A stretch of 64,000 bases of DNA, from the NCBI GenBank assembly GCA_022801715.1, contig JAAWSV010000009.1, positions 292 through 64,291 of the forward strand. Reading direction: 5' to 3'. The DNA is from Oscillospiraceae bacterium. GTDB lineage: Bacteria; Bacillota; Clostridia; Oscillospirales; Oscillospiraceae. Of this stretch, positions 6,206 to 60,536 are shown one piece after another. The translations under genes were made by a program, and so were the position numbers. The notes under the pieces are model-generated. The model was not told where the DNA came from, did not search any database, and worked only from the letters and a program-made list of their open reading frames with translations. Numbering within the stretch: position 1 is the first letter of the stretch; every line of letters begins with the position of its first letter.

Positions 6206-6728
6206 CAAAAAAGCCACGCCCCACAGCCGACCAAACGCAGGGGCGCCCACCTCCGCAGGGGCCAATGTCCCCATCGGCCCGCCCTCCCCCGGTGCGGTGA
6301 TTGTCGACAGAACAAACACACGCCTTACCAAACCGCCTTGGCCACCGAGCCCCGGCGCGCCGAGGTCGTCGCGCCCTACGGGGTTGGGTCATCGGAGATA
6401 GCTCACGAAAACAGATGTAGGGGCGCACATCGTGCGCCCGCCCTTCCCCAATGCGGCGGGTTTCGATAGAGGCAGGCGCACAATACCCGCAAGGGGCGCG
6501 CCGCATCCGTAAGGCGGCAAAGCCGCCAACGGCTGCGCTGTGTGCGCCCCTACACACGGTATTCCAAAACATTCCAGTTGACGGGGGACGGCGCGCCCTA
6601 CGGGTGATGTATTGGGGCGCGGAGGGAACGGGCCGGTGAGGACACCGACCCCTACGGAGGGGTTTGATGGACCATCCCAGTCGGGAGAGCCGGCGACCAC
6701 AGGCCGCCCCTACAACCGCTACTGGCAA
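6206..6728 (+). repeat. REP/BIME-like mosaic cluster R1
   Basis: Contains GGCGCGCCGAGGTCGTCGCGCC-CTACGG (6354-6381), inverted GTAG-GGGCGCACATCGTGCGCCC (6417-6439) and GGCCGGTGAGGACACCGACC-CCTACGG (6631-6657), plus degenerate units. The same modules recur at six other intergenic sites. Confidence 0.85.
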
Positions 6729-7198
6729 GCACGGCAGCCTTTGCGGCACCGCGCCAGCGAAACAACCATCAAGCTCCGGAGGCAAGTCGAAGCGAGGCAG
6801 GCAGAGCGGCAGCGGACGCCTACAGCATAGCTAAAGACGGGGGAACGCTCTCAAGATACCTTCTGCTTTGCAAGAGCCACCGCCGCCGCGTCCGAAGCGC
6901 CAAGCTGAAAATCAAGCACCGGTCTACCGAAGCAGCGCCGTAGCCTATGGTTCTTAGGGGGCAGCGAATAAGGGAGTTTGCCCGAGGGCAAACTCCCGCC
7001 TGAGCGGACACCTAAGCGCGCTTTTGCCTGCTTTTCTCGCGCGGGAGAAGGGAAAGGATGTGTGAAGGAAAACCGTATGGTTTTCCTTCACGTTCAATCA
7101 ACCCGCCGCAGCGACAGATTTTGGCAAAGTGCCAAAATCTGCTGGGTCTGGGGACCCTGTCCCCAGACCCAGTCGCCCGGGAGCGAAACCCCAGTCCC
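6729..7198 (+). repeat. Dispersed ~356-nt element, copy 1 (expanded to ~470 nt)
   Basis: Shares a 5' core (GCACGGC...CAAGCTCCGG.GGCAAGTCG..GCGAGG...AGAGCGGCAGCGG) and a 3' core (GGTTCTTAGGGGGCAGCGAATAAGG...CGCCTGAGCGGACACCTAAGC...GTCGCCCGGGAGCGAAACCCC) with copies at 11964, 34190 and 36973. Carries extra hairpins at 7061-7171. Confidence 0.85.
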
Positions 7199-9367: not shown

Positions 9368-9640
9368 ATTTCCAGAGCGTCCCGGTTGACGGGGAACAGC
9401 GCGCCGGGTCGTCGCGACCTATGGAGAATTGCGTTTTCGGATATGGTTTGTGAAAACGGGTGGAGGGGCAGGTATCACCCGCACGTCCCCAGTACGGTGA
9501 GTGTCGATGGAGCGGGCGCACAATGTGCGCCCCTACAGACGGGTTATCGGAACATTCCGGTTGACGAGGGGCAGGCCGGTGAGGACACCGGCCCCTACGG
9601 ATGGTTGCGTAGTAAGGCCACCAAAAAGCATCACCACCAA
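9368..9640 (+). repeat. REP/BIME-like mosaic cluster R2
   Basis: AGCGCGCCGGGTCGTCGCGACC-TATGG (9398-9424), GGGCGCACAATGTGCGCCC-CTACA (9514-9537), GGCCGGTGAGGACACCGGCC-CCTACGG (9574-9600). The linkers (GGTTTGTGAAAAC, ATTCCGGTTGACGAGGGG) are shared with the other clusters. Confidence 0.85.
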
Positions 9641-9678
9641 GCACGGCGGCCTCTGCCGTACTGGGTCAGCGAAACAAA
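9641..9678 (+). repeat. 5' fragment of the ~356-nt element (truncated copy)
   Basis: GCACGGCGGCCTCTGCCGTACTGGGTCAGCGAAACAA matches the first ~40 nt of the full copies. Similarity then stops ~75 nt before the aspS start. Confidence 0.6.
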
Positions 9679-9755
9679 CAGCCAAAAGATATCATTCCCA
9701 ATGGTAATATCCTATGGAAGCAATACACATTGTAATAGAAAAGAGGAGCAAATCT

Positions 9756-11534: not shown

Positions 11535-11572
11535 TATCCCACGCCGCAGCATTTTTTGGGGGACCGCTCGGC

Positions 11573-11602
11573 GGGAGGCCGGCCCGGTAGGGCCGGCCTC
11601 CC
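11573..11602 (+). terminator. GC-rich hairpin downstream of aspS
   Basis: GGGAGGCCGGCCC ggta GGGCCGGCCTCCC, a perfect 13-bp stem. The T-tract after it is weak (TTAT). Confidence 0.5.
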
Positions 11603-11963
11603 TTATCCACAGTCAGGAGGACAGGCCGGTGAGGACACCGGCCCTACGGGTGGGCTTATTGAGAGTATCTGTGGGCCGCAACCTTTGGCAAGGGAGGTTA
11701 AGGCGCGAAACACCATAATTGCCCAGCCCGGTGATTGTCGGTAGAGCAGGCGCACAATGTGCGCCCCTACAAATGGTTTACCGAAGTACTCTGATTGACG
11801 AGGGACGGCGCGCCGAGGTCGTCGCGCCCTACGGAGGGGGTAACGGACCATCCCGTTGTCGGGGGGCGGGCCGGTGAGGACACCGGCCCCTACGGAGGGT
11901 TTTGGTGGATCATCCCAAGGAGAGTAGGCGGCCACAGGCCGCCCCTACAACCGTTACCGGCAG
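11603..11963 (+). repeat. REP/BIME-like mosaic cluster R3
   Basis: Family A at 11634 and 11868, family C at 11748-11771, family B at 11807-11834, each followed by CTAC. Confidence 0.85.
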
Positions 11964-12320
11964 GCACGGCGGCATTTGCTGCACTGGGCCAGCGCAGCAA
12001 CCATCAAGCTCCGGGGGCAAGTCGTGGCGAGGGAGGTAGAGCGGCAGCGGATGTTTACCACAAAACTAAAGACGGGGGTACGCTTTCAGGACACCTTCAT
12101 CTAAGCGAGAGCTACCGCCGCCGCGTCCGAAGCACTAAGCTGAAATCCCACACCAGTCTACCGAAGCGGCGCCGCGTCTTGGGGTTCTTAGGGGGTAGCG
12201 AATAAGGACTGTGCCCCCAAGGGGGGCTAAAGCCCGCCTGAGCGGACACCTAAGCAGCCTTTTGCTGACTTTTGGGCTGTGCCAAAAGTCAGTCGCCCCG
12301 GGGGGCGAAACCCCCGTCCC
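11964..12320 (+). repeat. Dispersed ~356-nt element, copy 2
   Basis: Colinear with copies 1, 3 and 4. Hairpins GCCCCC aa GGGGGC, CTGACTTTTGG gctgtg CCAAAAGTCAG (12265-12292) and CGGGGGG cgaaa CCCCCG at the 3' end. Confidence 0.85.
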
Positions 12321-12490
12321 TTCCCCGCGCCGGGGCGGCGCGGAAAAAGGGCATGGATCGTCCACTGCACTGTTAAAAGAAAACTTTTGCCCCTGTGGGA
12401 ACACTCACCACACATCACTGCATTTCAAACAAACTACAAAGCCAAAAACTCAAACCAATCAATTTTATAAACCTGATTTAACAAAAAACG

Positions 12491-14886: not shown

Positions 14887-14935
14887 GCAGTACGGTACTG
14901 TTGGAGGCTTTTATCGTGCCGCAGCGGCGCGGGAC

Positions 14936-14966
14936 AAGAGGACGGGGGTTTCACCCCCGTCCTCTT
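14936..14966. terminator. Hairpin between convergent genes
   Basis: AAGAGGACGGGGG tttca CCCCCGTCCTCTT, a 13-bp perfect stem between the AlaX stop (14886) and the LtaS-like stop (15012). No clear U-tract on either strand. Confidence 0.5.
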
Positions 14967-17034: not shown

Positions 17035-18456
17035 TCAATACGTGAACTTCTCCTCCAGCCACGCCTTCAGCTCACTGATGGGCACACGCACCTGCTCCAT
17101 GGTGTCCCGGTTGCGGATGGTCACGGCGTTGTCCGCTGTCTCCGTGTCACTGCCCACGGTCTGGAAGTCCACGGTAACGCAATAGGGGGTGCCGATCTCG
17201 TCCTGACGGCGGTAACGCTTGCCGATGCTGCCGGCGTCGTCGTAGTCCACCATCCAGTACTTGCTCAGAAGCTGCTGCACCTCGCGGCCTTTCTCGGAGA
17301 GCTTCTTACTCAGGGGCAATACGGCCACCTTGAAGGGGGCTAAGGCCGGGTGGAGGTGGAGGACCACGCGGGTGTCGTTTTTCTCCGCGTCCACAACCTC
17401 CTCATCGTAGGCGTCAATGAGGAAGGCCAAGGTCACACGGTCAGCACCCAAGGAGGGCTCGATGACGTAAGGGACATAGTGCTCGTTGGCCTCTTGGTCG
17501 AAGTAGGTCTGATCCTTGCCGGAGGTGGTCTGGTGGGCAGTGAGATCGAAATCGGTGCGGCTGGCTACGCCCCAGAGTTCTCCCCAACCGAAGGGAAAGA
17601 CGAACTCAAAGTCCGTGGTGGCATTGGAGTAGTGGGAGAGCTCCTCCGGCTCGTGATCTCTAAGGCGCAGGTTCTCCTCCCGCATCCCCAGGTTCAGGAG
17701 CCAGTCCTTGCAGAACTGCTTCCAGTAGGCGAACCACTCCAACTCAGTGCCGGGCTTGCAGAAGAACTCCAGCTCCATCTGCTCGAATTCCCGGGTGCGG
17801 AAGGTGAAGTTGCCCGGGGTGATCTCGTTGCGGAAGGATTTACCCACTTGGCAGACGCCGAAGGGCAGCTTCCGGCGGGTGGTCCGCTGGACGTTCTGGA
17901 AGTTGACGAAGATGCCCTGCGCGGTCTCCGGGCGGAGGTAGACGGTGTTCTTGGCGTCCTCGGTGACGCCTTGAAAGGTCTTGAACATCAGGTTGAACTG
18001 GCGGATATCCGTCCAATTGTGCTTACCGCAGGTGGGGCAGGGAATCTGGTGGGCGGAAATGAAATCCTTCATCTCCTGCTGGCTGAGGGAGTCCACACTG
18101 TGACCTATATCGAAGTGGTTGGCCTCGCACCAGTCCTCAATGACCTTGTCGGCCCGAAAACGCTCCTTGCACTCCTTACAGTCCATGAGGGGATCGGAGA
18201 AGCCGCCCACATGGCCGCTGGCCACCCAAACCTGCGGGTTCATGAGGATGGCGGCGTCGAGCCCCACATTATAGGGGTTTTCTTGGACGAACTTTTTCCA
18301 CCAAGCCTTCTTGATGTTGTTCTTCAGCTCCACACCTAAGGGTCCGTAGTCCCAAGTGTTGGCAAGGCCGCCGTAGATCTCCGAGCCGGCGAAGATGAAG
18401 CCCCGGCCCTTACAGAGGGTGACGATTTTGTCCATGGTTTTGTCAGTGTTTTTCAT
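17035..18456 (-). CDS. glyQS: Glycyl-tRNA synthetase (alpha2 GlyQS type)
   Basis: In-frame ATG at 18456 with AAAGGAG RBS inside ORF 17035..18666. [41 protein letters not shown] is the canonical N-terminus. [25 protein letters not shown] is also present. The upstream 70 codons translate REP modules. Confidence 0.95.
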
Positions 18457-18477
18457 TTTTTGCTCCTTTATGATGAA

Positions 18478-18625
18478 AAATTTTGATGACTGTAGGGGAA
18501 TTCCGCCGCTGGGGGAGGACAGGCGCACGATGTGTGCCCATACATGTGTTCGGCCATGGCGCTCATAGGGCGCGACGGCCTTGGTGCACCGTCCCCCGTC
18601 AACTGGAATGATTGGATAAAACGTG
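18478..18625 (-). repeat. REP/BIME-like cluster R4 (minus-strand orientation)
   Basis: Minus strand reads ATTCCAGTTGACGGGGGACGGTGCACCAAGGCCGTCGCGCC-CTATG, then GTAT-GGGCACACATCGTGCGCC. These are the same units as the plus-strand clusters, here between the T-box terminator and the glyQS start. Confidence 0.8.
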
Positions 18626-18664
18626 CGTGAGGTAGATATTATTTGTACATTTGGTGGGCGAGGC

Positions 18665-18889
18665 AATTAAAAACGCCCTGAGCCTGCTGGCTCAGGGCGA
18701 ACGATTGTCCGCGGTTCCACCTGATTTCGCGCCTCTTGGCGCGCACTCTGCCCGGTAACGGCGGGATCCGGCGGGTATTTTCTTCCCGCGGCTCAGGAGG
18801 CGCCTCTCCCCTGCTCCGGCGGGGACTTGCACCGTCCGTCCCCTCTCTGCGGCCGAATCACAGGGTCTTTTCCTCCGTCTTTGCCTGTA
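18665..18889 (-). promoter_or_regulatory. T-box leader (glycine specifier GGC) controlling glyQS
   Basis: Minus strand shows an AGAGA bulge and a GGUGCAAG distal-loop motif. GGC (complement of 18802-18804) sits just 5' of the stem I closing strand CCUCC. T-box sequence AAUCAGGUGGAACCGCGG (18704-18721) is followed by terminator CGCCCUGAGCC agca GGCUCAGGGCG UUUUU (18665-18696). Confidence 0.85.
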
Positions 18890-18895
18890 GGAGGG

Positions 18896-33754: not shown

Positions 33755-33890
33755 CGGGAGAGAAAATTTCCACGTTCATAGATTGTTTACAGTCAGGACA
33801 CGATTTTCTCATAATCCTATAGTAAAGTACAAGCATGCAAAGGGTAACACACAACCCGATGCGATTTCTCCCTCCTAAAACACACACAAC

Positions 33891-33934
33891 ACACACGTCT
33901 AAGGCCCGCCTTTTGGCGGGCCTTAGACGTGTGT
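33891..33934. repeat. Perfect 20-bp-stem palindrome
   Basis: ACACACGTCTAAGGCCCGCC tttt GGCGGGCCTTAGACGTGTGT, preceded by a CA-rich run. No U-tract. Possibly the rnhA terminator. Confidence 0.6.
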
Positions 33935-34004
33935 GCAGTCCGCTTGTTTGAGGTGCAGTGGGGGGTGGGAAAGCAATGGTTATATGGATGGGTTGTTGGA
34001 ACGT

Positions 34005-34189
34005 TCGGGCGGACGGGAGACGTCGCGCCGGGGTCGTCGCGCCCTACGGGGTTAGGTCATCGGACATGGTTCGTGAAAACAGATATAGAGGTGCACAGCG
34101 TGCGCCCGTCCTTCTCCAGTGCGGTGGGTGTCGAGAGAGCGGGCGCACGCTGTGCGCCCCTACAGGTGTATGACCAATACCACCAGAAA
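34005..34189 (+). repeat. REP/BIME-like mosaic cluster R5
   Basis: Family B variant at 34022-34049 (..CGCGCC-CTACGG), a degenerate inverted family C unit near 34085-34110 and a forward family C unit GGGCGCACGCTGTGCGCCC-CTACA at 34141-34164. The GGTTCGTGAAAAC linker is conserved. Confidence 0.85.
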
Positions 34190-34545
34190 GCACGGCGGCC
34201 TTTACTGCACAACGAACAGCGCAACAACCATCAAGTTTCGGGGGCAAGTCGTGGCGAGGGTGGCAGAGCGGCAGTGGCGGTTTGCCACAAAGCTATAGAC
34301 GGGGGGACGCTCTCAGGACACCTTCTGCTTTGCGAGAGCTACCGCCGCCGCGTTGGGTGTGCCAAGGTTGGACGAGCACTGGCCTGTCGAAGGAGCGCGC
34401 AGCTTGGGACTCTTAGGGGGGAGCGAATAAGGGCTGTGCCCCCCTGCGGGGGCTAAGGCCCGCCTGAGCGGACACCTAAGCGCGCTTTTGCCTACTTTTC
34501 TCGCGTGAGAAAAGTAGGTCGCCTGGGGGTGAAACCCCCGTCCCC
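34190..34545 (+). repeat. Dispersed ~356-nt element, copy 3
   Basis: Colinear with the other copies. The H2 hairpin here is CCTACTTTTCTC gcgt GAGAAAAGTAGG (34491-34518). The 3' end is GGGGG tgaaa CCCCC. Confidence 0.85.
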
Positions 34546-34858
34546 ATAGCCAAACAGAAAAATTGTGTGTACAAACCGATTCTTTTGTGTTATACTATCC
34601 ACAGCCGCCGGACATTCCGGCTTTTATAGACTGTTTGTTTCGCGGAGGCGTTGTGGGCGCCGCTGCGACAAAATAGATACAATAGAGAAAAAGGGAAAGC
34701 ATCGACAGGGAGGTTCCCCCATCGCAGCCGCGCACGAATCGGGGTGCGCAGCTGGGGACGCCTCTCTATGTCGGCGCGCGGTTTTTGTGCGCCTTCATCC
34801 CCCTAAAGGGGGTTCACTCTTTCCCTACATAGCCATGATGAAAAAGGAGTGAAACTAT

Positions 34859-36517: not shown

Positions 36518-36615
36518 GGCAGTTTGCTTGGCAAAAACGGAAGCAAAAGAGATGAAGTTTTTCAGATACCATCCTATAGCAATTTAAAAATCCCGATATT
36601 TTTCCCACAAACGAG

Positions 36616-36648
36616 AGAGGAGTGCGATATTCGCACTCCTCTTTTTTT
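36616..36648 (+). terminator. Intrinsic terminator of rnj
   Basis: AGAGGAGTGCGA tat TCGCACTCCTCT followed by TTTTTT. Confidence 0.9.
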
Positions 36649-36660
36649 GTATGGTGTTTT

Positions 36661-36972
36661 GTAGGAAGATTTCGGTGGAGGAGGGATGGCGCGCCCTACG
36701 GACGGTCTATCGGGAGTGCGATGGGCATCGGGGGATGGGCCGGTGAGGACACCGGCCCCTACGGGGTTGGGCCACCGGACATGGTTCGTGAAAATGTTTG
36801 CAGGGGCGCACAATGTGTACCTGTCCTTCCCCAGTACGGCGAGCACCAACAGAAGGGGCGCACAATGTGCACCCCTACAAACGGTATACCGAAGCATTCC
36901 GATTGACGAGGGATGGCGCGCCGAGGCCGTCGCTCCCTACGGAGATTTATATAACAACAGCATTGCTGGCAA
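36661..36972 (+). repeat. REP/BIME-like mosaic cluster R6
   Basis: Collapsed family B at 36688-36701, family A at 36737-36764, degenerate inverted C near 36800, forward C at 36855-36879, family B at 36915-36942. Confidence 0.85.
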
Positions 36973-37328
36973 GTACGGCGGCATTTGCCGCACCGGGCCA
37001 GCGAAGCAACCTTCAAGCTCCGGGGGCAAGTCGTGGCGAGGGTGGCAGAGCGGCAGCGGACGCCTACAGCATGGCTACAGACGGGAGGATGCTCTCAAGA
37101 TACCATCCACTAAGCAAGAACAACCGCCGCCGCGTTGGGGGCACCAAGGTTGGACGAGCGCCGGTCTGTCGAGGGGGAATGCGTCCTGGGGTTCTTAGAG
37201 GGTAGCGAATAAGGGCTGTGTCCCCAAGGGGGGCTAAAGCCCACCTGAGCGGACACCTAAGCAGCCTTTTGCTGACTTTTGAGCTGCACCAAAAGTCAGT
37301 CGCCCGGGGGGCGAACCCCCTGTCCCCT
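36973..37328 (+). repeat. Dispersed ~356-nt element, copy 4
   Basis: Colinear with the other copies. H2 is CTGACTTTTG agctgcac CAAAAGTCAG (37272-37299). The 3' hairpin abuts the stop codon of the convergent ECF gene at 37327. Confidence 0.85.
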
Positions 37329-37902
37329 ACGCCACGGTGCCCAGCAGGTGGGCCCTGCGCAGGGCCGGGCTCATCGCCAGGTACAGCAGCGCTGCGCAGA
37401 TGGTGGCAATAATCCCATTGGCCAGTGATATCGGCAGCTTCACACCTAGCGTATACGTCAGAGCTACATCCCAAGTAAATCCCTTAACAAAATGCCCGGA
37501 AATAATGTTCTTTGTCAGATACAGCACCACATAGGTCATCGCCCCAGCGGCGCCAGCCAGCCAGATGCGTACTCTCTCGCTGCCAAAGCGCACCACGTGC
37601 ATCAAAAGTCCCGCCACCATGGCCATGGCAAACTTATTGATGAAGGTGATCCAGAACTCCGGTGCCCAAGCCGGGTCCGTCAAATCCACCATCGCCGAGC
37701 CGATGCCCGCTGCCAGAGAGCCGGTAATGGGCCCGAAAAGCAGCGCAGAGAGGATGCACATGGTGTTCCCCAGCTGAATTGCCGTCTTGCCCAAGGGACT
37801 GGGGATGGGGATGCTGGCAAACTTAGTCAGTGCAAACACCATCGCCGAGAGGACGCCGATGAGGGTGATCCTCTGTACGGTAAAAAACTTCTTCTTCTCC
37901 AT
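37327..37902 (-). CDS. ECF transporter S component (substrate unknown)
   Basis: 191 aa, six TM segments. LIGVLSAMVFALTKFASIPIPSPLG...LLFGPITGSLAAGIGSAMVDL is typical of ECF S units. Confidence 0.8.
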   Translation of the reverse strand: MEKKKFFTVQRITLIGVLSAMVFALTKFASIPIPSPLGKTAIQLGNTMCILSALLFGPITGSLAAGIGSAMVDLTDPAWAPEFWITFINKFAMAMVAGLLMHVVRFGSERVRIWLAGAAGAMTYVVLYLTKNIISGHFVKGFTWDVALTYTLGVKLPISLANGIIATICAALLYLAMSPALRRAHLLGTVA

Positions 37903-37946
37903 AGGTAACGCCTCCTGTTGTATTTTGATAGGGTATAAAATGCTCT

Positions 37947-40719: not shown

Positions 40720-40758
40720 AATGGGGTGTGGCAGAGTGATTCTCTGCCGCACCCCATT
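40720..40758 (+). terminator. 17-bp hairpin after the dCMP deaminase gene
   Basis: AATGGGGTGTGGCAGAG tgatt CTCTGCCGCACCCCATT (one G-T pair). The T-tract is weak. Confidence 0.55.
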
Positions 40759-40782
40759 CTGCTTGACGTGAAGGAGCTGTCT

Positions 40783-41814
40783 ATGAAACGTTATCAAGCT
40801 ACTGATTGGGAGCAGTACTGCCGGAGCTGCTGTCCTCCGCCCTGCCCCCCGGGGCCGCCGCCCTGTCCTCCCGGGCCGCCGCCCCGCCCGCCTCATCCGC
40901 CGCGGCCGCCCCATCCGGTACCGCCCATGCCGCCCCGTCCGGGTGTGATGGGCCCCACAGGCCCCACCGGTCCGACCGGCCCCACTGGCCCTGCCGGTGC
41001 GGGGCTGGACAGTGTGGCCCCCTTTGTTCCCGGTGCCTACTACGCCATGGGGGATCTTGTCTACTATGACGGCAGTCTCTACCGCGCCAACCGCAATGGC
41101 GCGGCAGGGGTCCCCGGTACTTCCCCGGATTTTGATTTGGTGACTGTGACAGGGCCCCAAGGCCCCACCGGGCCTATGGGTCCCATGGGCCCGGCCGGCG
41201 CCACCGGTGCGACTGGTGCCCCGGGTGCCACAGGTGCAACAGGTGCGGTGGGCCCCACCGGTCCTGTCGGCCCTGCTGGTGCTGCCGGCGCTACCGGCCC
41301 CGCCGGTGCGATAGGCCCCACCGGCCCTGCTGGTGCGGCTGGTCCCGCTGGTGCAGAAGGTCCTACTGGCCCCGCCGGTCCTGCTGGTGCGGCAGGCCCC
41401 GCTGGTGCGGAGGGCCCCACCGGCCCCGCCGGCCCTGCTGGTGTAGCAGGCCCCGCCGGTGCGGAGGGCCCCACCGGCCCCGCTGGCCCTGCTGGTGCAG
41501 CAGGCCCCGCCGGTGCGGAGGGCCCCACCGGCCCCGCCGGCCCTGCTGGTGCGACTGGCCCCGCCGGCGCAGAGGGTCCTACCGGTCCCGCCGGCCCTGC
41601 TGGTGCGGCAGGCCCCGCTGGCGCGGAGGGTCCTACCGGCCCCGCTGGCCCTGCTGGCCCTATTGGCCCCACCGGTCCTACTGGGCCTGCCGGTACCATC
41701 ACACCGGGACCCGCTATAGCGGACTTGGAGCCTTCCGCAGACCTGGGCGCCATCGTGACGGAGATCAATCAGCTCTTAGCTGCTCTCCGGGCTGCTGGCA
41801 TTATTGCAACCTGA
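40783..41814 (+). CDS. Collagen-like triple-helix repeat protein with Cys/Pro-rich N-terminus
   Basis: In-frame ATG 40783 after [37 protein letters not shown], a short G-X-Y run (40942-41004), a ~50-aa aromatic-rich globular insert ([21 protein letters not shown]), about 60 uninterrupted G-X-Y triplets (41152-41694) and a 39-aa C-terminal tail. Confidence 0.85.
41341..41664 (+). repeat. Tandem 54-bp repeat (about 6 units) inside the collagen-like gene
   Basis: Unit encodes [18 protein letters not shown]. Units start at 41341, 41395, 41449, 41503, 41557 and 41611 and differ only by synonymous or near-synonymous changes. Confidence 0.85.
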
Positions 41815-48626: not shown

Positions 48627-49733
48627 TCAGTCCTCGGCCACATTCTCGCAGAAGCGCATCAAAATCGTAGCCACTTGGGCGCGGGTAGCCCGGCCGGTGG
48701 GGCTGATGGTGCCGTCGTCCATGCCGGAGATCAGCCCCGTGCCGACGGCCCAGCGGATGGGCTCCACGGCGTAGTCGTTCACCATGGCGGCATCGCGGAA
48801 GCCGTCGAGACTCCCGCGGGCGCTGGTGTCATAGCCCTTGCTCTCCGCGTAGCGGTACAGGATAGCCGCCAGCTGCTGCCGGGTGATGGGGTCCTCCGGG
48901 CCGAAGCCGCCGGTGTCGTAGCCGTTGACCAGCCCTTGGGCGCTGGCCCAGGCGATGGGGGCGGCGTAGTAGAGGCTCTGATCCACGTCGGGGAAGACCT
49001 TGCTCCCCCCGGCGGGGTTCCCCTCCAAGCGGTGGAGGATGGTGACGATCATCCCCCGCGTGGTGGGGGTATTGGGGGAGAAGCTGTCGCCGGTGGTGCC
49101 GGACATCATGCGGTTGGCGTAGACGAACTGCACGGCGGTGTAGTACCAGTCGCCTCTGCCGGCGTCCGAGAAGGGCAGCACGACATCGGTGTAATCAGGC
49201 TTTTCCTCCGGCTTGTCGTCCTTGTCATTCTTGTCGTCCTTATCGTCCTTTCCGCCGCTGGGACGGCTGCCGCCGGAGCCGCTGCTCCCGCCGCTGGAGG
49301 CGGCGCGCAGGGTGACGGTGGCGTCCGCGGAGACGTTGAGGCCCCGATCCAGCAGCTTCAGCTCCCCGGAGGAGGGGAGGGACGCGCCGCCCAAATTCAG
49401 GGTGCCAAGGGACAGGGAGGCGCCGATGTTCATGGGGGTGTCCGCGGTGAGATAGATGGTGATCTTCGTACTGCCGCCGCTCTCCTCCACCGTGCAGCCG
49501 GGGCTGTACACATCCTTCCCGGCGGGCGTGAAGGAGGGATTGGGGCAGCTTCCGGGGACGGTGACTGTCAGCTGGGCGCCATAGACACCGCCGTTGACCC
49601 CGCTGACAGAGAGGCTGGCGCCGCCGCTGCCGTTGCGGTAGGTGACGGAGGGGGCGGAGGCCCCCCATGCCGCCGGAGCGGCACAGGAGAGCACCGTCAG
49701 AATGGACAGGAGGGTGCAGAGAGTCCTTCTCAT
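48627..49733 (-). CDS. Cell-wall anchored protein: signal peptide, beta-sandwich (possibly cohesin-like) module, K/D-rich linker, three SLH repeats
   Basis: In-frame ATG 49733 inside ORF 48627..49790. Signal MRRTLCTLLSILTVLSCAAPAAWG. C-terminal SLH repeats (FSDAGRGDWYYTAVQFVYANRMMSG, FPDVDQSLYYAAPIAWASAQGLVNG, FRDAAMVNDYAVEPIRWAVGTGLISG). Its start overlaps the upstream stop as ATGA. Confidence 0.8.
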   Translation of the reverse strand: MRRTLCTLLSILTVLSCAAPAAWGASAPSVTYRNGSGGASLSVSGVNGGVYGAQLTVTVPGSCPNPSFTPAGKDVYSPGCTVEESGGSTKITIYLTADTPMNIGASLSLGTLNLGGASLPSSGELKLLDRGLNVSADATVTLRAASSGGSSGSGGSRPSGGKDDKDDKNDKDDKPEEKPDYTDVVLPFSDAGRGDWYYTAVQFVYANRMMSGTTGDSFSPNTPTTRGMIVTILHRLEGNPAGGSKVFPDVDQSLYYAAPIAWASAQGLVNGYDTGGFGPEDPITRQQLAAILYRYAESKGYDTSARGSLDGFRDAAMVNDYAVEPIRWAVGTGLISGMDDGTISPTGRATRAQVATILMRFCENVAED

Positions 49734-52700
49734 ACCTCGCCCTCCAACACGATGGTGGGCAGGGCGTCGCCGCCGGGGGTGGTCAGCCACATGGTCTCCG
49801 CCGTCTTGCGCTTGCTGCTGGCGTCATTTGGCTTGTCGGTGCGGTAGAACTCCAGCATCATTTGGCCGGGCAGCAAACTCTCCGCGCCGCAGTTGCTGAC
49901 GCCTTGGAGTGCCTCCTCGGCCTTCAGGTTGGGTACAAAGATGAAGATACCGTTGCTGATATCGCTGACCTCACCGTCGGCAGGCAGCTCCGCGAAGAGG
50001 TAGCAGTCGCCGGAGAGCGCCCGCTCCACCACTTGGTTCTCGCCCTTCTCATCGGGGGCGGTGGCAAAGCGGCCCTTCACCTCCACAAAGTTGTACAGCG
50101 GGTCGCCCCGATAGGTGCCGGTGATCACAATCGTGTCAGCGGCGATCTTCTCGCCGTCTCCCAAGTCGTAGTCCGCGTCCAAGCGGCCCACCGCGCCGTC
50201 GGCCATGAAGGCCACGTCGTCTCCGGCGTAGCTGATGGGCAGTACCGTGACACCCTCACCCACGCCGGTGATCACGATAGTCTTGGCGTCATAGGTCCAG
50301 ATGCGGCTGTCCTCCGCGGCGGTCTCGGGCTTGTTGAAGTAGAGGAGGTAGCAGTCCATATCGTCACGGGCCTCGTTCAGGGCCGGATCGAAGGTGCTGT
50401 CCTTGGCCACAGTCTCCTTGTCCTTGCCGTCGGTGATGGTGACAGTATAAGCCCCACCCTCCGCCACCGCTCCGGTGAGCTTCAAACCGGAGACGGCGGT
50501 CTCATTGTGCAGGGTGATGGTCACGGTATCACCCTCCCGGGTGCTGCTGTAGGTGCTGGAATCCAGCACCGCATCATAGGCGATACGGATACTGCCGGCA
50601 CCCACTTGGGTGCTCTCGCCCACCGTCAGCGCCGTACCCAAGGTGCTGTAGGCCACCACCGCATAGTTAAACACCCGGTGGTTGGCGGAGCCGATCAGGT
50701 CGGTGTAGACGGCGCTCTTGCTGCCACTCTCAGGCACCACAAAGTCGATGCTCTGGCCGTTGCGCAGAATCTCATAGCCCTGGAGGCTGCCGGTAAGGCC
50801 GCTGCCGTCGATGGTCAGCGTCACCTTATTGGTCGTGCCTGCTGTCAGAGCCGCGGAGGCGGTAAAGCTGCCGGAGAGCGTCCCGGTCCCTGCCAAGCGG
50901 TCCCGGCGGCTCTGGTCGCTGAGGTACCAGACCGCCCGGTCCTCCTTGTCATAGGAGGCCAGCTGATCCTTCGTTTGGGGGCTGAGGGCCATACCCCAGC
51001 GGGTGAAGAACTCGGTCAGGTCCTTCCCGGCCACACCGGCGGCGGTGAGAGCCACTTTGTCATCATAGCTGGAACCCATATCCTTGGTGTAGGTCCCGGC
51101 CTTCCAAGCCTTGAAGAAGCGGTTGTAGAAGTCCATGGGCTTCTCGCCGCTGTCGTAGGCCAAGTGGAGCTGCCAGTACATGCCCAGCTGGGTGAACACG
51201 TCGCCGGAGGTGCCGAGGGTGGCCTGCGCGGTCTTGGTGAAGATGCTGGGGTACTTATTGCTCTTCTCCAAGCGGGAGGACAGGGTGTTCTGCTTCCCGT
51301 CGAAGGTCTGAACCATAATGGAGTAGATGTTGTTGGTGATCTCCGCCTTGCCCAGCTTATCCATGTTGTGCCCGATCTCATGGGCGATACCCCAGCCAAA
51401 GAGGTTGTTGGCGGTGGCCCCGGCGGGCAGGTCCTTGATGGGCGTACCGCCTACCATACCGGAGCAGGAGCCGAAGCCGATGCCGATGTGGCTCCCGGCG
51501 GCGTACATGAACGCACCGGTAAACATCTGCATGCACCGGATATTCTGCCGGGTCTCCATATCGTTCTTCTCATAGGTGTTGTCGATGCCCTGCGTGGTCT
51601 TGCAGATGTGCAGCAGGTCCTCCCAAGCCAGCACGGAGTTGGTCAGCTGACGGACCTTTCCATCGGTGTCCGCGTTGCCGAGGCCCGCCAGCGCGGCGGA
51701 GGCCGGGAGGGAGAGGAGCACCGTGGGTGTGGCGATCTCGGTGACATTCTGCCAGTTGGTCTGGGCTGTAGAGGCGTTGGCGGCGGGGGTGTAGGCCGTC
51801 AGCTCCTCCACATAGGCCCGGATGGCATCACTGCGCTGGGTCTCCGTCATGGTGTACCAGTCGGACAGATCCAGCAGGGGGATATCCGTGGCCCGGCGGA
51901 CATGGAGGGAGATGTCCTCAGGACCGCTCCCGCTGTAGGTCACATACAGACTGCCGCCTCGGGGGGTGTCCTGGCTGCCGATCTTGGGGACGGTAAACAC
52001 ATTCCGTCCGTTCTGAATCTCCCCCACCTTGGCCAGCCATGTGTTGGCCTCGGCGTTGTACTGGCTGGCATGGAGCGTGACTGTCTCCCCCTCCGGAATG
52101 CCGGCGGCGTAGATGGTAACCTCGCTGAGGGCCCCGGCGGCGGCGCCAATGGGCTGGAGGACGCTTCCGCCCTGGCTGTACTTGGCGCTGTCGCTGCCGC
52201 CGTCACGGGAGTCGATGCCGGTGAGGAGGATCTTGTGGGTCTCCTTCTTCAGCAGGGACTCCGCCAAAGCCAGCTCGTCATCGAGCATAGCGGTGCGCAG
52301 ATAGTACTTGCCCTCTTCGCTGTTCAGGCGTGTCCGCAGCGCGTCAATCGTCTCCTGTGTAACACCGGAGACCAGCTCCGTGTGGAGGCCGTCCTGACCG
52401 CCCACAAACAAGGCGTCAATATCGGCGGGCAGGCTGTGGGCCGGGTCGTACTCCATAAACAGCAGCTCCGAGAGGCTGACGGTTTCGTAGTCGTACTGCT
52501 CCACAGCGATGCTGACCTTCACCACATTCTCCACCGGCCCAAAGGGCAGCACGGCGAAGCGGTCCGCGGCGCAGGAGCTGTAGTTAGCCACATTGGGCCA
52601 AGTGTCCACGTCCCGGCCGGTGCCGCCGTTGTCCACACCGCCCTTCTCCGGATCGGGGACAATCAGATGGCCCGCGCTGTTCAGCTCCTCCCCCTCATAC

Positions 52701-54685
52701 CAGATGCGGACGCTGTAGGCCCGGAGGTATCTGGGATAGTTCCCCTCCAGACGGGGCACCCAGAAGGCGGCGGTGAGGTCCACCGGCTCTTTGAAGGTGG
52801 TGACTACATGCTCATTCCGGCTCCAGTTGGAGCTGGCAGTCCAGTGGGTGGTGTAGTCATCATCCCACATATTCTTGCTGTTCCAAGGCCGGCTGGCGGA
52901 GTAGGAGGCGGAGTCATAATTGCCTTTATCCACCAGCTCCATGCTGGCAATCTTGTCATAGCTGAGGAGGCCGGCCTCCGGAATTCCCTCAGGCCGCTTG
53001 TCCTCCATGCCCTTGGGAGTGCCCTCGGCAATGCGGGACTTGCCGCTCTCGCCCAAGGCATTCCCGGCGATGATGTAGATCGAGTAGGTGGTGTCGTTTG
53101 TCAGATCGTTGATGGTGATGCCGGTCCCGGTGAGGGTTCCGCCGGCCTGAGTCCAAGTGGAGGCACCCTTCACCTGATAGAACACCTTGTAGTACGTGGC
53201 GTTTTCGCTCTTCTTCCAAGAGACGGTGAGGGCGCTGTCCAGCACGCCCACATTCACCATATCCGGGGCGGCGGGAACCTTCGCCGGCTGGGGCACAGCG
53301 TACACCGGCTGGGAGGCCTTCCCCGTCCAGCTGCCGTCGGTGGGAGTAACGGTGAAGGCGTACTCGATCAAATTCTCCAGCCCGGTTACCGTGGCGCTGT
53401 TCACTGTGGTGCGCAGCTCCTTAACCTTGGAGCTGTCGCTCTGGGGCCAGTAGTGGACGGTGTAGCCGGACACATTGGGCAGAGTCTGCCAAGTGAGTGC
53501 CACCTGCTCATGGCCCGCCTTGGCGGCAAGGCCCTTGATGGTGCTGTTGGGGGGTGTGGGATTTTCGGGGACGATATCCTTGAGGAAGCGGATTGTCTCC
53601 ACCGTGGCATATTCGTCGCCGGTCTTGATCACGGTAATAGTGACCTTCTTCACCGCCACCCGCTTTCCCAAGTTGATGGTGACAACGCTGCTCCCCGCCA
53701 TACGGCCTACAGCGTGAATGCCCGCAGGCAGGGTGTGGTCAAAGGGAACCTCAATGGTCTCGCCGCTCTGGGTCTCCACGGTGATAGTGCCCTTCTCCAC
53801 CTCGCCGCTGCCCACAGGGGTGACGATCTCCAGCTCGCTGACCTCCACGGGATTGGTCAGCACCAGCGGGATCACAATATTGCTGTCATTCTCCGAGGTA
53901 AAGGTGACGGCGTTGCCCTCCTCGGTGAAGAGGTTGTTCAGCTCACCGCTCGCGGTAGTCTTGGCCGCCTTTAAGGCTGCCTCGGTGTCATCTGCCTTTA
54001 CCGGATTGCCCAGCAACGCCGTCTCCAAATACTCCGCATCGCCCTGGGCCTTCAGCTGACGGTTGATATAGCTGAGGTCGATGATGTCTACCTTGCCGTC
54101 GCCATTGAGGTCACACTGGGCGATGTCCGCCTTATTGGAGGTGCCAAGGGCGGCGGAGATCTTCGCGCGGTCGGCCTCCGTGACCTGTTTGTCGCCGTCC
54201 ACATCACCCAAGGTGAAGGTGGCGTCGCCGGTGCCCACCGTCACCTGCCGGGCGTAGTCCTGCACCTCGATGGTGCCGGTGGTATAGGGCTTATACCCTG
54301 TGCCCTCGAAGGTCAGGGTGTAGCTCCCTTGGGGCAGGCCGCCAAAGGTCACATCCAGATAGCCGGGCCATTTCCCGCCGTCCAGAGGCGCCCCCTCGCC
54401 GTTGCGCAGGGAGACCACGGCGGTATAGCCGCCGGACAGCGTGGTGGCGGTTTCCTTGGTCAAAGCCACGAAGCCCAAGGAGGACCCGCCGTCCTTTTTC
54501 AGCACCGCCCGCAAATCCCGCCGGGCCAGCTCGTCCAAGGTCTGGGCGTAGTCGATCCGCACCGTGGCGGAGATACTGCCGGTGACGGCGGGTGCGTCCT
54601 CCGCCGCGGCCGTCACCGGCAGCAGGGAGGCCAGCATCACCGCCGCAAGCAGCAGCGATAGAAGGCGGACACGCACATGTTTCAT
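49730..54685 (-). CDS. Secreted 1651-aa multidomain protein: dockerin, Fn3 repeats, discoidin/CBM-like module, M60-like zinc peptidase
   Basis: Signal MKHVRVRLLSLLLAAVMLASLLPVTAAAE. Dockerin duplication GDVDGDKQVTEADRAKISAAL / CDLNGDGKVDIIDLSYINRQL (nt 54056-54215). Fn3-like segments (VALTWQTLPNVSGYTVHYW, LTVSWKKSENATYYKVFYQ). Zincin motif WGIAHEIGHNMD (HEIGH at 51368-51382) in an M60/enhancin-like context. Confidence 0.85.
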   Translation of the reverse strand: MKHVRVRLLSLLLAAVMLASLLPVTAAAEDAPAVTGSISATVRIDYAQTLDELARRDLRAVLKKDGGSSLGFVALTKETATTLSGGYTAVVSLRNGEGAPLDGGKWPGYLDVTFGGLPQGSYTLTFEGTGYKPYTTGTIEVQDYARQVTVGTGDATFTLGDVDGDKQVTEADRAKISAALGTSNKADIAQCDLNGDGKVDIIDLSYINRQLKAQGDAEYLETALLGNPVKADDTEAALKAAKTTASGELNNLFTEEGNAVTFTSENDSNIVIPLVLTNPVEVSELEIVTPVGSGEVEKGTITVETQSGETIEVPFDHTLPAGIHAVGRMAGSSVVTINLGKRVAVKKVTITVIKTGDEYATVETIRFLKDIVPENPTPPNSTIKGLAAKAGHEQVALTWQTLPNVSGYTVHYWPQSDSSKVKELRTTVNSATVTGLENLIEYAFTVTPTDGSWTGKASQPVYAVPQPAKVPAAPDMVNVGVLDSALTVSWKKSENATYYKVFYQVKGASTWTQAGGTLTGTGITINDLTNDTTYSIYIIAGNALGESGKSRIAEGTPKGMEDKRPEGIPEAGLLSYDKIASMELVDKGNYDSASYSASRPWNSKNMWDDDYTTHWTASSNWSRNEHVVTTFKEPVDLTAAFWVPRLEGNYPRYLRAYSVRIWYEGEELNSAGHLIVPDPEKGGVDNGGTGRDVDTWPNVANYSSCAADRFAVLPFGPVENVVKVSIAVEQYDYETVSLSELLFMEYDPAHSLPADIDALFVGGQDGLHTELVSGVTQETIDALRTRLNSEEGKYYLRTAMLDDELALAESLLKKETHKILLTGIDSRDGGSDSAKYSQGGSVLQPIGAAAGALSEVTIYAAGIPEGETVTLHASQYNAEANTWLAKVGEIQNGRNVFTVPKIGSQDTPRGGSLYVTYSGSGPEDISLHVRRATDIPLLDLSDWYTMTETQRSDAIRAYVEELTAYTPAANASTAQTNWQNVTEIATPTVLLSLPASAALAGLGNADTDGKVRQLTNSVLAWEDLLHICKTTQGIDNTYEKNDMETRQNIRCMQMFTGAFMYAAGSHIGIGFGSCSGMVGGTPIKDLPAGATANNLFGWGIAHEIGHNMDKLGKAEITNNIYSIMVQTFDGKQNTLSSRLEKSNKYPSIFTKTAQATLGTSGDVFTQLGMYWQLHLAYDSGEKPMDFYNRFFKAWKAGTYTKDMGSSYDDKVALTAAGVAGKDLTEFFTRWGMALSPQTKDQLASYDKEDRAVWYLSDQSRRDRLAGTGTLSGSFTASAALTAGTTNKVTLTIDGSGLTGSLQGYEILRNGQSIDFVVPESGSKSAVYTDLIGSANHRVFNYAVVAYSTLGTALTVGESTQVGAGSIRIAYDAVLDSSTYSSTREGDTVTITLHNETAVSGLKLTGAVAEGGAYTVTITDGKDKETVAKDSTFDPALNEARDDMDCYLLYFNKPETAAEDSRIWTYDAKTIVITGVGEGVTVLPISYAGDDVAFMADGAVGRLDADYDLGDGEKIAADTIVITGTYRGDPLYNFVEVKGRFATAPDEKGENQVVERALSGDCYLFAELPADGEVSDISNGIFIFVPNLKAEEALQGVSNCGAESLLPGQMMLEFYRTDKPNDASSKRKTAETMWLTTPGGDALPTIVLEGEV

Positions 54686-59112: not shown

Positions 59113-59276
59113 AAGTCTCTCCTCCTTATCATTCCCCCCGCGGTTCCGCCGCAAGCCCTCCGCAGGAGTTTGCGCCTCCGGCGCAAATAAATTGAAATCG
59201 TTTTTCCGGAAACCGCTTTCCTTGGGACAACAAGCAGTCCCAAGGAAAAAATCGTCCCCCCGTCCTATCCCTAAAT

Positions 59277-59304
59277 TCGCGTGAAATCCGCAGATTTCAC
59301 GCGA
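59277..59304. repeat. TGAAATC-N4-GATTTCA hairpin (family member 4)
   Basis: TCGCGTGAAATC cgca GATTTCACGCGA, a 12-bp perfect stem downstream of the permease stop at 59322. Confidence 0.6.
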
Positions 59305-59321
59305 GCACTTCGTGTGGAGTA

Positions 59322-60536
59322 TCACTCCGCACGAAGTGCAACAACCGGCTGCAAACCGGAGGCCTTGATTGCCGGATACATGCCGAAGATGACCCCCAGC
59401 ACCACCGAGAACGCCAGCGCCCCCACCGTGATGGAGAACGAGGGCCAGATGACCATCTGTAGGAGCAGCTTCCCGCCCACTAAGGTCAGGATGGTCCCCA
59501 GCGTCACGCCGAAGATGCCGCCGATGCCGCAGATCATGCCGGCCTCGATCAGAAACTGGCTGACGATAGACTTCCGCTCGGCCCCGATGGCCCGGCGGAT
59601 GCCGATCTCCCTCGTCCGCTCGGTCACCGTCACCAACATGATATTCATAATGCCGATGCCGCCCACCAGCAGGGAGATGGCGGCGATACCGCCCAACACC
59701 AAGCTCATCATCTTGGCGTACTCGTTGCCGCTCTCCGACCACTGGTTGGCATTCTCGACGTAGAAGTAGCCCTTCTGGTTGTTCCAGTCGTTGCGGTCGC
59801 CGCAGATACCGGTGAGAAAGCCGTTGATCAGCGTGGTGGCCTCGGTGGCGGCGGAGGCGGTCTTGGCCTTTACATAGAACTCGTTCATATCCCGGGTATC
59901 CTGCTGCAGCGCCCGGGCGGCGGTGTAGGGAAATACGATCACATTGTCCAGCGACCAAGAAATATTGTCCGCGTCCTTTTCCGCATAGACGCCGATGACG
60001 GTGAAGGGCACGCCGTTGACACGGACCTCCTTCCCCACCGGGTCGGTGGCGTCGAAGAAATTCCGGGCCGCCCGGCCGCCCATGACGCAGACGTTGGCGT
60101 AGTTGTCTATGTCGATCTTGCTCAGGTCCCGTCCCTTCTCGATCTGGAAGTTGTTGACCACGCCGTACTGGTCACTGCCGAAGTACATGTCGGGCCGCTG
60201 ATCCATGCTGTCGCTGGTTTTGTTTCCATAGGTCACGGTGGCGCTCACATAGGCGTTGGGTGTCACCCCGTCCACCTGCTCGGTGAGGTAGAGGCAGTAG
60301 TCATAGAGGTCCTCGAAGACGCTGACCCCGTCGTAGCGGTAGGCGTAGACCTGGATGCGGTTGCTGCCCATCTTCTCGTACATCTCCAGGGACTTCTTGT
60401 TCATGCCCATGAGCACCGAGACAATGGCCATCACCGACGCCACACCGATGATGATGCCCAGCATGGTGAGAAAGGACCGCCCCTTGTTGCCGCCGATGGA
60501 CTTGAAGGCCATCTTGAAGGCCTGCCCCAGTTTCAT
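59322..60536 (-). CDS. ABC transporter permease, MacB/FtsX type
   Basis: 404 aa. N-terminal TM, a large extracytoplasmic domain, then the FtsX-type C-terminal 3-TM bundle (LLVGGIGIMNIMLVTVTERTREIGIRRAIGA). Confidence 0.88.
   Translation of the reverse strand: MKLGQAFKMAFKSIGGNKGRSFLTMLGIIIGVASVMAIVSVLMGMNKKSLEMYEKMGSNRIQVYAYRYDGVSVFEDLYDYCLYLTEQVDGVTPNAYVSATVTYGNKTSDSMDQRPDMYFGSDQYGVVNNFQIEKGRDLSKIDIDNYANVCVMGGRAARNFFDATDPVGKEVRVNGVPFTVIGVYAEKDADNISWSLDNVIVFPYTAARALQQDTRDMNEFYVKAKTASAATEATTLINGFLTGICGDRNDWNNQKGYFYVENANQWSESGNEYAKMMSLVLGGIAAISLLVGGIGIMNIMLVTVTERTREIGIRRAIGAERKSIVSQFLIEAGMICGIGGIFGVTLGTILTLVGGKLLLQMVIWPSFSITVGALAFSVVLGVIFGMYPAIKASGLQPVVALRAE

Follow-up and report, generated by a model that had tools for sequence, protein, structure and literature searches.

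A non-coding, hairpin-bearing repeat joined to GTAG-type REP arrays in mouse-gut Oscillospiraceae as candidate selfish DNA

The 64-kb stretch of Oscillospiraceae DNA analysed here (the window) contains four co-oriented copies of an element of about 360 nt, and the question raised by this locus is whether they represent a family of non-coding RNAs or a non-autonomous mobile element, the two alternatives left by the original prediction. Of the two, the second, a mobile or selfish element, is better supported, on the basis of presence and absence between genomes, remnants, synteny breaks, divergence of orthologues and neutral substitutions. We consider it probable that the element is selfish repeat DNA. 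The best explanation as a whole, a lineage-restricted, non-coding, non-autonomous, selfish hairpin-mosaic repeat tied to GTAG-type REPs, is given about an even chance.

The copies were located by direct-repeat search, MAFFT alignment and an nhmmer profile, and all four predicted positions on the plus strand were recovered with nhmmer E-values of 1e-94 to 1e-116, which are far beyond chance; pairwise identity between them is 72-87% (MAFFT, nhmmer). Copy 1 (6722-7198), upstream of hisS, belongs to an expanded subfamily with an insertion of ~115 nt. Copy 2 (11957-12320, E 7e-116) comprises the element body and the terminal hairpin T1, and its 3' domain was matched at 12178-12322 with 172 bits by CM R1, a covariance model of that domain. 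Copy 3 (34183-34545, E 2e-111) is located between the genes for RNase H and RNase J, and copy 4 (36966-37328) follows the RNase J terminator (36613-36645) and abuts the stop of a convergent ECF S-component gene (37327-37902, minus strand), with no plus-strand gene downstream.

In addition to the copies, the window contains a remnant of the 5' end, another of the 3' end and a relic in inverted orientation. The first ~45 nt of the body are present upstream of aspS, where a fragment had been proposed at 9641-9678 and nhmmer detected 44 nt at 9637-9680 on the plus strand (E 2e-5). Solo T1-T2 hairpins without the body lie between alaX and a sulfatase gene (14916-14965, minus strand). The inverted relic (11558-11613, minus strand), with the form ACUGUGGAUAAGG-hairpin-CCCGCCGAGCGGUCCCCC, is placed head-to-head with copy 2 and corresponds to a related family sharing the 3' domain; its intact counterpart is found outside the window in locus L017 (2453-2599, minus strand; CM R1 E 4e-9). 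The neighbours of the collected copies are unrelated housekeeping genes (hisS, aspS, GH3, rnj, dnaB, argG, mreC, ffh and others). Co-orientation with the element is seen for the gene upstream in 10 of 14 copies and for the gene downstream in 12 of 15, and the copies at L007 and L013 are antisense to both neighbours. GC skew was ambiguous as a gauge of replication-strand bias.

Directly 5' of every copy, and of the 5' fragment, an array of GTAG-type REPs was found, reading ...CCCCTAC on the element strand, in agreement with the predicted position of each copy at the 3' end of a REP mosaic. No REP cluster was detected elsewhere in the 64-kb window. The array preceding copy 2 (11719-11944, plus strand) consists of four units of ~55-61 nt from repeat families D4 and D5, each with a G/C hairpin and ending in CCCTAC, and similar arrays precede copy 1 (6346-6713), the 5' remnant (9485-9602), copy 3 (34014-34164) and copy 4 (36691-36944). 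The arrays contain one to five direct units in one constant orientation relative to the element, and the flanking unit is formed by GTAG and a G/C hairpin, for example GTAGGGGCGCACATTGTGCGCCC on the opposite strand. The distance between the REP CTAC and the first hairpin of the body varies among copies from 10 to 40 nt, and T1 ends in GTCCCCTAC in only two or three copies.

On the element strand, the REP array is followed by a 5' body of ~230 nt, a long hairpin of ~70 nt, the hairpins H2 and T1 and, often, a further hairpin, T2. The 5' body carries the invariant blocks GGCAAGTCG, CAGAGCGGCAGCGG, AGACGGGGG and ACCGCCGCCGCG, and blocks of 10-25 nt do not vary between paralogues whose overall difference is 20%. 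All the conserved strings quoted originally were present, but conservation turned out to be patchy rather than concentrated in the 5' 90 nt and the 3' 130 nt. Two motifs, GAGCGG and GGAYACC, are found repeatedly at unpaired positions.

In copy 2, the long irregular hairpin (12187-12254, plus strand) is formed by a closing helix CUUAGG...CCUAAG, a purine-rich internal region and H1, which is made up of GGACU/AGCCC and GCCCCC/GGGGGC. It is followed by the 12-bp hairpin H2 (12264-12293, plus strand; GCUGACUUUUGG / CCAAAAGUCAGU) and by T1 (12300-12320, plus strand), GGGGG-CGAAA-CCCCC with a GUCCC tail, as defined in alignments of 16 and 27 copies. In the same alignments the 3' boundary of homology is sharp, the flanks diverging directly after GTCCCC. 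Sequence and alignment also bore out the claim of a GGGGG-GAAA-CCCCC hairpin, with no T-run, at the end of each copy; this hairpin is dissimilar to that of the 5' end, GCGGC-AUUU-GCUGC. Downstream of copy 2, T2 (12325-12350, plus strand) has the form CCGCGCC-GGGG-CGGCGCGG and is followed by AAAAAGG; T2 plus AAAAAGG is found after about half of the copies and occurs also without the body, and the T1-T2 pair occurs alone as well.

In copy 1, three perfect hairpins make up the insertion, which lies between H2 and T1. It is common to copy 1, L010, L017a, L029, L031 and L032, and its hairpins show compensatory changes. In L017, L033 and L034, a standard copy is found head-to-head with a divergent 3' domain, whose 5' part is different or absent; full inverted 3' domains are present in the last two loci. 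Together with the relic in the window, these arrangements indicate that the 150-nt three-hairpin domain is a separable module, common to at least two element families.

Pair counting in 22 copies revealed covariation in the 3' domain alone. In H1, pairs changed on both sides were found three times in the outer stem and once in the inner stem; in H2, 4 of the 12 pairs show such changes and no pair is broken among 15 copies. H2 has at least four alleles (CCUAC/GUAGG, CUGAC/GUCAG, GGUAC/GUACC and CUUAC/GUAAG). Those reported for the window were read correctly: copies 2 and 4 have CTGAC/GTCAG, and copy 3 has CCTAC/GTAGG. The two forms of H1 were also correct; copies 2-4 share GCCCCC/GGGGGC, and copy 1 has GGGAGTTTGCCC/GGGCAAACTCCC, a variant that makes a perfect 12-bp stem. 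The predicted compensatory changes are hence genuine in H1 and H2, and were strengthened by the further variants, but they are confined to the 3' 150 nt, and those of H2 represent a few discrete alleles shuffled among copies rather than many independent events. In the same 22 copies, the 5' 230 nt showed no covariation and are conserved in sequence only. Long-range helices drawn by RNAalifold for this 5' domain never change on both sides and contain many broken pairs, and these helices were not relied upon. When folded as a single sequence, copy 2 was no more stable than its shuffles (z = -0.86).

The large internal region between CUUAGG/CCUAAG and H1 differs among copies, and in all variants one of its strands pairs with the other. 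The central helix of this region measures 8 bp in variant V5 (GGGACCGC/GCGGUCCC), 6 bp in V4a (GGCGUG/CACGCC), 5 bp in V4b (GGCGC/GCGCC) and 4 bp in V2 (GGGC/GCCC), and is reduced to GC/GC with flanking G-A pairs in V1, the majority form. The five variants share one architecture, and each folds alone into the same long hairpin, except that the isolated segment of copy 2 misfolds. The variants of L029 and L025 had prompted the idea of a programmable loop of the bridge-RNA type, which was dropped because L033 and L034 show the two strands of the loop pairing together.

In every allele, and in 20 of 21 copies, the apical loop of H2 is complementary to the five bases that precede this hairpin (GCAGC/GCUGU, GCGCG/CGCGC), those of copy 2 being the GCAGC at 12255-12259; the proposed pairing would be either a pseudoknot or an alternative fold. 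The wobble pairs of H2 are G-U in 18 cases and A-C in one, a bias that is weak outside this hairpin; because of it, the plus strand is favoured, though not proven. Judged by the substitutions, formation of the hairpins has clearly been selected, be it in RNA or in single-stranded DNA.

About 27 distinct copies were collected, all of them from one narrow clade of mouse-gut Oscillospiraceae. A two-part pattern of the conserved core, of a kind that detects only the majority loop variant, matched one species representative among 185,579 genomes, the uncultured Clostridia MAG CANPBB01, which carries at least 12 copies in 10 loci, and matched a single locus or contig in metagenomes. Pattern scans of viral contigs and blastn searches of phages and plasmids gave no match. 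The window is part of a 134-kb JGI metagenome contig. Its RNase J is 89% identical to that of Dysosmobacter; in relatives with RNase J identities of 91% and 88%, no copy was detected within 10 kb of the RNase J gene with nhmmer and the 3'-domain covariance model. One related contig came from mouse gut. Since gene callers often translate the G+C-rich element, a search was run with an alignment of its open plus frame as a pseudo-protein. It brought up short ENA contigs with at least 26 spurious ORFs, and their DNA provided further copies and new variants. Copies recur in independent JGI, ENA, NCBI and Logan assemblies.

Turnover of the element was followed by comparing the window with MAG CANPBB01, a genome of ~92% DNA identity, whose coding DNA is 91-95% identical and whose RNase J protein is 99% identical. 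Upstream of aspS, the MAG has a full copy and the window only the first 45 nt, with a deletion that extends into the flank. As the copy at the orthologous site is of the full expanded type, the remnant at 9637-9680 is the product of an internal deletion. Downstream of alaX, the MAG contains REPs and a full inverted copy where the window has T1-T2 only, whereas upstream of the GH3 gene copy 2 of the window is matched in the MAG by T1-T2-like hairpins alone, next to a different upstream gene. Collinearity between the two genomes stops at element copies, and a clean empty site with identical flanks on both sides was not recovered.

Positional orthologues are no closer to each other than paralogues, and may carry different H2 alleles: copy 3 and L011a are 83% identical and copy 4 and L011b 75%, compared with up to 90% for paralogues. 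Within one genome no pair of copies exceeds ~90% identity, so that nothing suggests a burst in the recent past. Between orthologues of the same species, identity is 96-98%. Copy 4 is separated from its same-species orthologue by a 20-nt tract in which one hairpin variant is swapped for another, a mark of gene conversion. Within species, substitutions affect ~3% of the columns that are invariant in the family and ~3% of the variable ones (~25 substitutions, some of them in contigs of 2-5x coverage). On this count, drift of the resident copies within species looks neutral, and the pattern fits a constraint on the source copies that are propagated and not on each locus.

The element was also compared with known families. 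In the scan with the Rfam 15 covariance models no family, T-box, HEARO, IS605-orfB, group I/II introns, OLE, ROOL, raiA and others included, matched it, neither at gathering score over the window nor at E<=10 on copies 1 and 2, where hits were at chance level and far below gathering, in keeping with the original statement that it resembled no known RNA; the only match at threshold in the window was an unrelated T-box at 18690-18890 (minus strand). Clear TIRs and TSDs, which would have made of it a simple MITE, were sought as well. The two ends of copy 2 have no terminal inverted repeat in common, and no duplicated bases are shared by the flanks of 27 copies, which sets the element apart from classical MITEs. 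In ~240 kb of sampled DNA, the search for transposases of any type came out empty; genes for Y1/RAYT proteins, DEDD recombinases (PF01548/PF02371), TnpB, IscB or TnpA were absent from the sampled loci, where neighbouring ORFs are ordinary genes.

Other candidates were tried and rejected. An IS608-like geometry (CTAC, 19 nt and a hairpin) fits copy 1, copy 2 and L018 and fails in the others. Complementarity between the ends and the internal loops was limited to matches of G-runs with C-runs, for example GACGGGGG with CCCCCGUC, without covariation. A role as a CsrA sponge through GGA motifs was discarded, only two such motifs being conserved.

Could the element be a gene, or a part of one? In most copies one plus frame is open for 73-91 codons, and at least 26 such "proteins" have been deposited, as expected from a family of small protein-coding genes or pseudogenes; this explanation, taken together with that of a metagenome-assembly artefact, has a negligible probability. 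Substitutions among copies show no 3-nt periodicity and no third-position excess, for which reason the element is regarded as non-coding and the open frame as a by-product of G+C content and common descent. Indels between copies also shift the frame, the ORFs have no Pfam match, and an artefact would not be expected to recur in independent assemblies. The non-coding nature claimed originally was thus upheld, with the correction that one plus frame is open in most copies. It is very improbable, too, that the element is a cis-regulatory 5' leader (a riboswitch, a T-box-like element or an attenuator), as could be suggested by the co-oriented gene that follows three of the four copies in the window (hisS, GH3, rnj) and most copies overall. 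Sites resembling sigma-70-type promoters of downstream genes lie 3' of the element, TTGACT-17-TATGAT before ylxM-ffh in L029 and TGTACA-17-TATACT with the TG of an extended -10 before rnj at copy 3 (34568-34596), which argues against a leader, as do the convergent genes faced by copy 4, L007 and L013, the unrelated functions of the downstream genes and the orthologous GH3 gene that lacks the element in the sister MAG.

A multicopy structured RNA with a host function is a more serious proposal, although an unlikely one. Such an RNA would be transcribed from a promoter of its own or processed out of the upstream gene's 3' UTR, and its role would be to bind proteins, to act as a sponge, or to serve mRNAs as a module for stabilisation or termination. 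The invariant blocks among divergent paralogues, the covarying hairpins, the recurrent unpaired motifs, the terminator-like G/C hairpin at the end of every copy, the prevalent co-orientation with the upstream gene and the G-U wobbles of H2, as a hint of the plus strand, are all consistent with it. However, no conserved promoter was found 5' of the body, a canonical terminator separates rnj from copy 4, L007 and L013 are antisense to both neighbours, and the G-U bias is weak outside H2. Furthermore, no constraint is visible in the way sister genomes lose, truncate or replace copies, within-species substitutions do not spare the invariant blocks, and the family is limited to one small clade. Another rival, which we consider quite improbable, is an ORF-less derivative of an RNA-guided insertion sequence, either an IS110-type end encoding a bridge RNA that targets REPs, like ISPpu9 ssr9, or an IS200/IS605 PATE that keeps its omega-RNA end, with the nuclease or recombinase gene elsewhere. 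Constant location at REPs, lack of TIR and TSD, a long structured non-coding body with a sharp end after a hairpin, and a separable 3' domain that is common to a second family and found in inverted pairs would all agree with this origin. There are precedents in IS110 elements, whose targets are REPs and whose non-coding ends are long and structured (PMC11208160), and in ISPpu9, whose transposase moves into REPs the ORF-less, RNA-encoding module ssr9, of which extra copies are found there (PMC12288879). Against it, the sole large loop that looked programmable is an irregular helix whose strands covary with each other and not with the flanks; there is no second guide loop, no core dinucleotide shared by the junctions and no convincing complementarity between loops and ends; and the sampled DNA lacks DEDD, TnpB, IscB and TnpA genes, just as Rfam gave no match to HEARO or IS605-orfB families.

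For the preferred explanation, a selfish repeat, the following mechanism is proposed. The conserved hairpins and blocks would serve as cis signals for copying or moving the element, as single-stranded DNA or RNA, and an enzyme encoded elsewhere would probably move it in trans. The candidate machinery is of the HUH/Y1 type (RAYT or IS200/IS605-like), the same that is thought to move the adjacent GTAG-tagged REPs, and the body would be carried between REP-type hairpins. Once established, copies are read as drifting neutrally and decaying by deletion, as overwritten by gene conversion from other copies and as acting as recombination breakpoints. The multicopy state, the non-coding nature, the structured 3' domain, the turnover and the neutral drift have been shown, whereas transposition itself, the enzyme, the strand and the form of nucleic acid are inferred. 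The main points against the explanation are that the ~240 kb sampled contained no mobilising gene, that no near-identical recent copies exist and that no clean empty site was recovered.

The most specific part of this proposal, that a RAYT or an IS200-like HUH enzyme moves the element as single-stranded DNA together with the REPs, is tentative, and we rate it as possible but on the whole unlikely. The dissimilar end hairpins do not fit IS200/IS605, the distance from CTAC to the hairpin is variable (10-40 nt), and the long conserved 5' body exceeds what an HUH transposase would be expected to need and is not explained by known transposase requirements. It should also be kept in mind that metagenome assemblers can generate chimeric repeats. 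A bolder and improbable alternative is that the element is the RNA or single-stranded DNA component of an undescribed mobile system, a structured molecule of ~360 nt that would replicate and home to REP or terminator hairpins with a trans-acting enzyme, its 3' domain being a shared recognition module; in one variant, it would be the partner RNA of a new RNA-guided recombinase or nuclease.

Among the closest known repeats are the mosaics of REP/BIME sequences and the REPINs mobilised by RAYTs, with their GTAG-tagged REPs. Composites of a REP and an unrelated stem-loop have been described in Pseudomonas, as has the mobilisation of REPs by RAYTs (PMC3733652). Like these repeats, the element is intergenic, lies mostly downstream of genes, differs in abundance among close relatives and has no TIR or TSD, and it shares with them G/C hairpins with compensatory sub-families and the organisation in arrays of units, which here are GTAG-tagged flanking units. 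The GTAG-tagged palindromes are present in those flanking units, whereas the ~360-nt body is not itself such a palindrome and has a long non-palindromic 5' part; REPs measure 20-40 nt and REPINs ~100 nt. Unlike in REPINs, the REPs 5' of the body are direct and not inverted, no RAYT is encoded in the sampled loci and the host belongs to the Bacillota.

The ssr9 module and IS110 bridge RNAs resemble the element in being ORF-less and structured non-coding sequences of a few hundred nucleotides, located at REPs and without TIR (PMC12288879, PMC11208160). The position at REPs, the lack of TIR and TSD and the long structured non-coding end of IS110 members are all found here; in contrast, there is no recombinase nearby, no A/B boxes or core dinucleotide were recognised, and the pair of guide loops that pair with target and donor is missing. 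With IS200/IS605 PATEs the element has in common its non-autonomous nature, the lack of TIR and TSD, sub-terminal hairpins, a 3' end a few nucleotides past a hairpin and possibly an action as a single strand. It differs from them in that its two end hairpins are not related, no target tetra- or pentanucleotide abuts the left end or lies at a fixed distance, no relative of tnpA or tnpB was found in the sampled DNA and Rfam gave no IS605-orfB or HEARO match.

In kind, the element resembles the BOX and RUP repeats of pneumococci and the bcr repeats of Bacillus cereus, which are modular, hairpin-forming intergenic repeats of 100-400 nt, confined to one species group in tens of diverged copies, and whose function is debated between mobile DNA and RNA element. 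To our knowledge, they have no sequence similarity to it, and we know of no description in them of a union with GTAG REPs or of the three-hairpin 3' domain. The element belongs to no described family, differing from REP/BIME sequences, REPINs, PATEs and the repeats of Firmicutes in size, modular layout and fixed union with GTAG REPs.

The element has practical consequences for sequence data, as contigs end at it, indicating that it breaks metagenome assemblies, and it is the source of at least 26 spurious ORFs that have entered public protein databases. If the preferred explanation is true, it would constitute a new family of structured non-autonomous repeats in abundant and little-studied gut Clostridia, and GTAG-type REP arrays would exist in the Bacillota, contrary to a survey of GTAG REPs that found none in this phylum (Firmicutes/Bacillota; PMC3733652). 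It would also offer a natural case of how hairpin-based selfish DNA persists, through selection of source copies, neutral decay, gene conversion and rearrangement at copies. If, instead, the element is the RNA partner of an enzyme, the search for this enzyme could start from the element's modular 3' domain.

Arrays of GTAG-tagged REPs were located in the window at positions 6346-6713, 9485-9602, 11719-11944, 34014-34164 and 36691-36944, and also in L009, a collected sequence from outside the window (L009:5420-5550). Their units, of approximately 55-61 nt, are directly oriented and carry compensatory stem variants. At least one array, that in L009, is not adjoined by the element. The genome hosting these arrays belongs to the Bacillota (Oscillospiraceae); a published survey reports GTAG REPs from Proteobacteria, Cyanobacteria, Chloroflexi and PVC only (PMC3733652).

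The stretch that separates the RNase H gene from copy 3's REP array contains, at 33889-33936, a palindrome with perfect 20-bp pairing, CACACACGTCTAAGGCCCGCC AAAA GGCGGGCCTTAGACGTGTGTG. Its arm is similar to the 3' strand of the long hairpin of the element (GCTAAGGCCCGCC).

Among the aminoacyl-tRNA synthetase genes of the window, the glycyl-tRNA synthetase gene (17035-18666, minus strand) is preceded by a T-box leader at 18690-18890 on the same strand (Rfam RF00230, 95.1 bits). No T-box was found at hisS or aspS; a copy of the repeat element lies upstream of hisS, and only an element remnant upstream of aspS.

The long ORFs at 37492-37908 (plus strand) of the window and at L019:11753-12277 in another collected sequence are spurious: such ORFs overlap either the element or the strand opposite a genuine gene. 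At least 26 element-derived 'proteins' (P0121-P0146) are present in public protein collections, and the interior of the element is the end point of many public contigs.

A long tandem array of 9-nt units, with at least 31 registers (41152-41700, plus strand), encodes a 3-residue repeat within a hypothetical protein (ORF 40726-41814) with no recorded Pfam domain. A cluster of large surface proteins on the minus strand (49730-54685, 56803-59958 and 48627-49790), in which a 1651-aa protein combines peptidase M60, FN3, dockerin and F5/8-type-C domains while others carry SLH domains, is unrelated to the repeat element finding.

Within positions 1-23200, an rpmH-rnpA-yidD-yidC-jag block on the minus strand and dnaA on the plus strand mark the presumed replication origin, near 22.7-23.2 kb. 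The genes at 1-14.9 kb, on the plus strand, are head-on to this presumed origin, and near 7 kb the sign of the GC skew switches. Combined with the breaks in synteny with the sister MAG at element copies, these features suggest a rearrangement. In that MAG, an element copy separates two tandem paralogous genes (HTH/cupin plus AMP-binding enzyme; L015:3-5447, minus strand); this copy may sit at the junction of a duplication.
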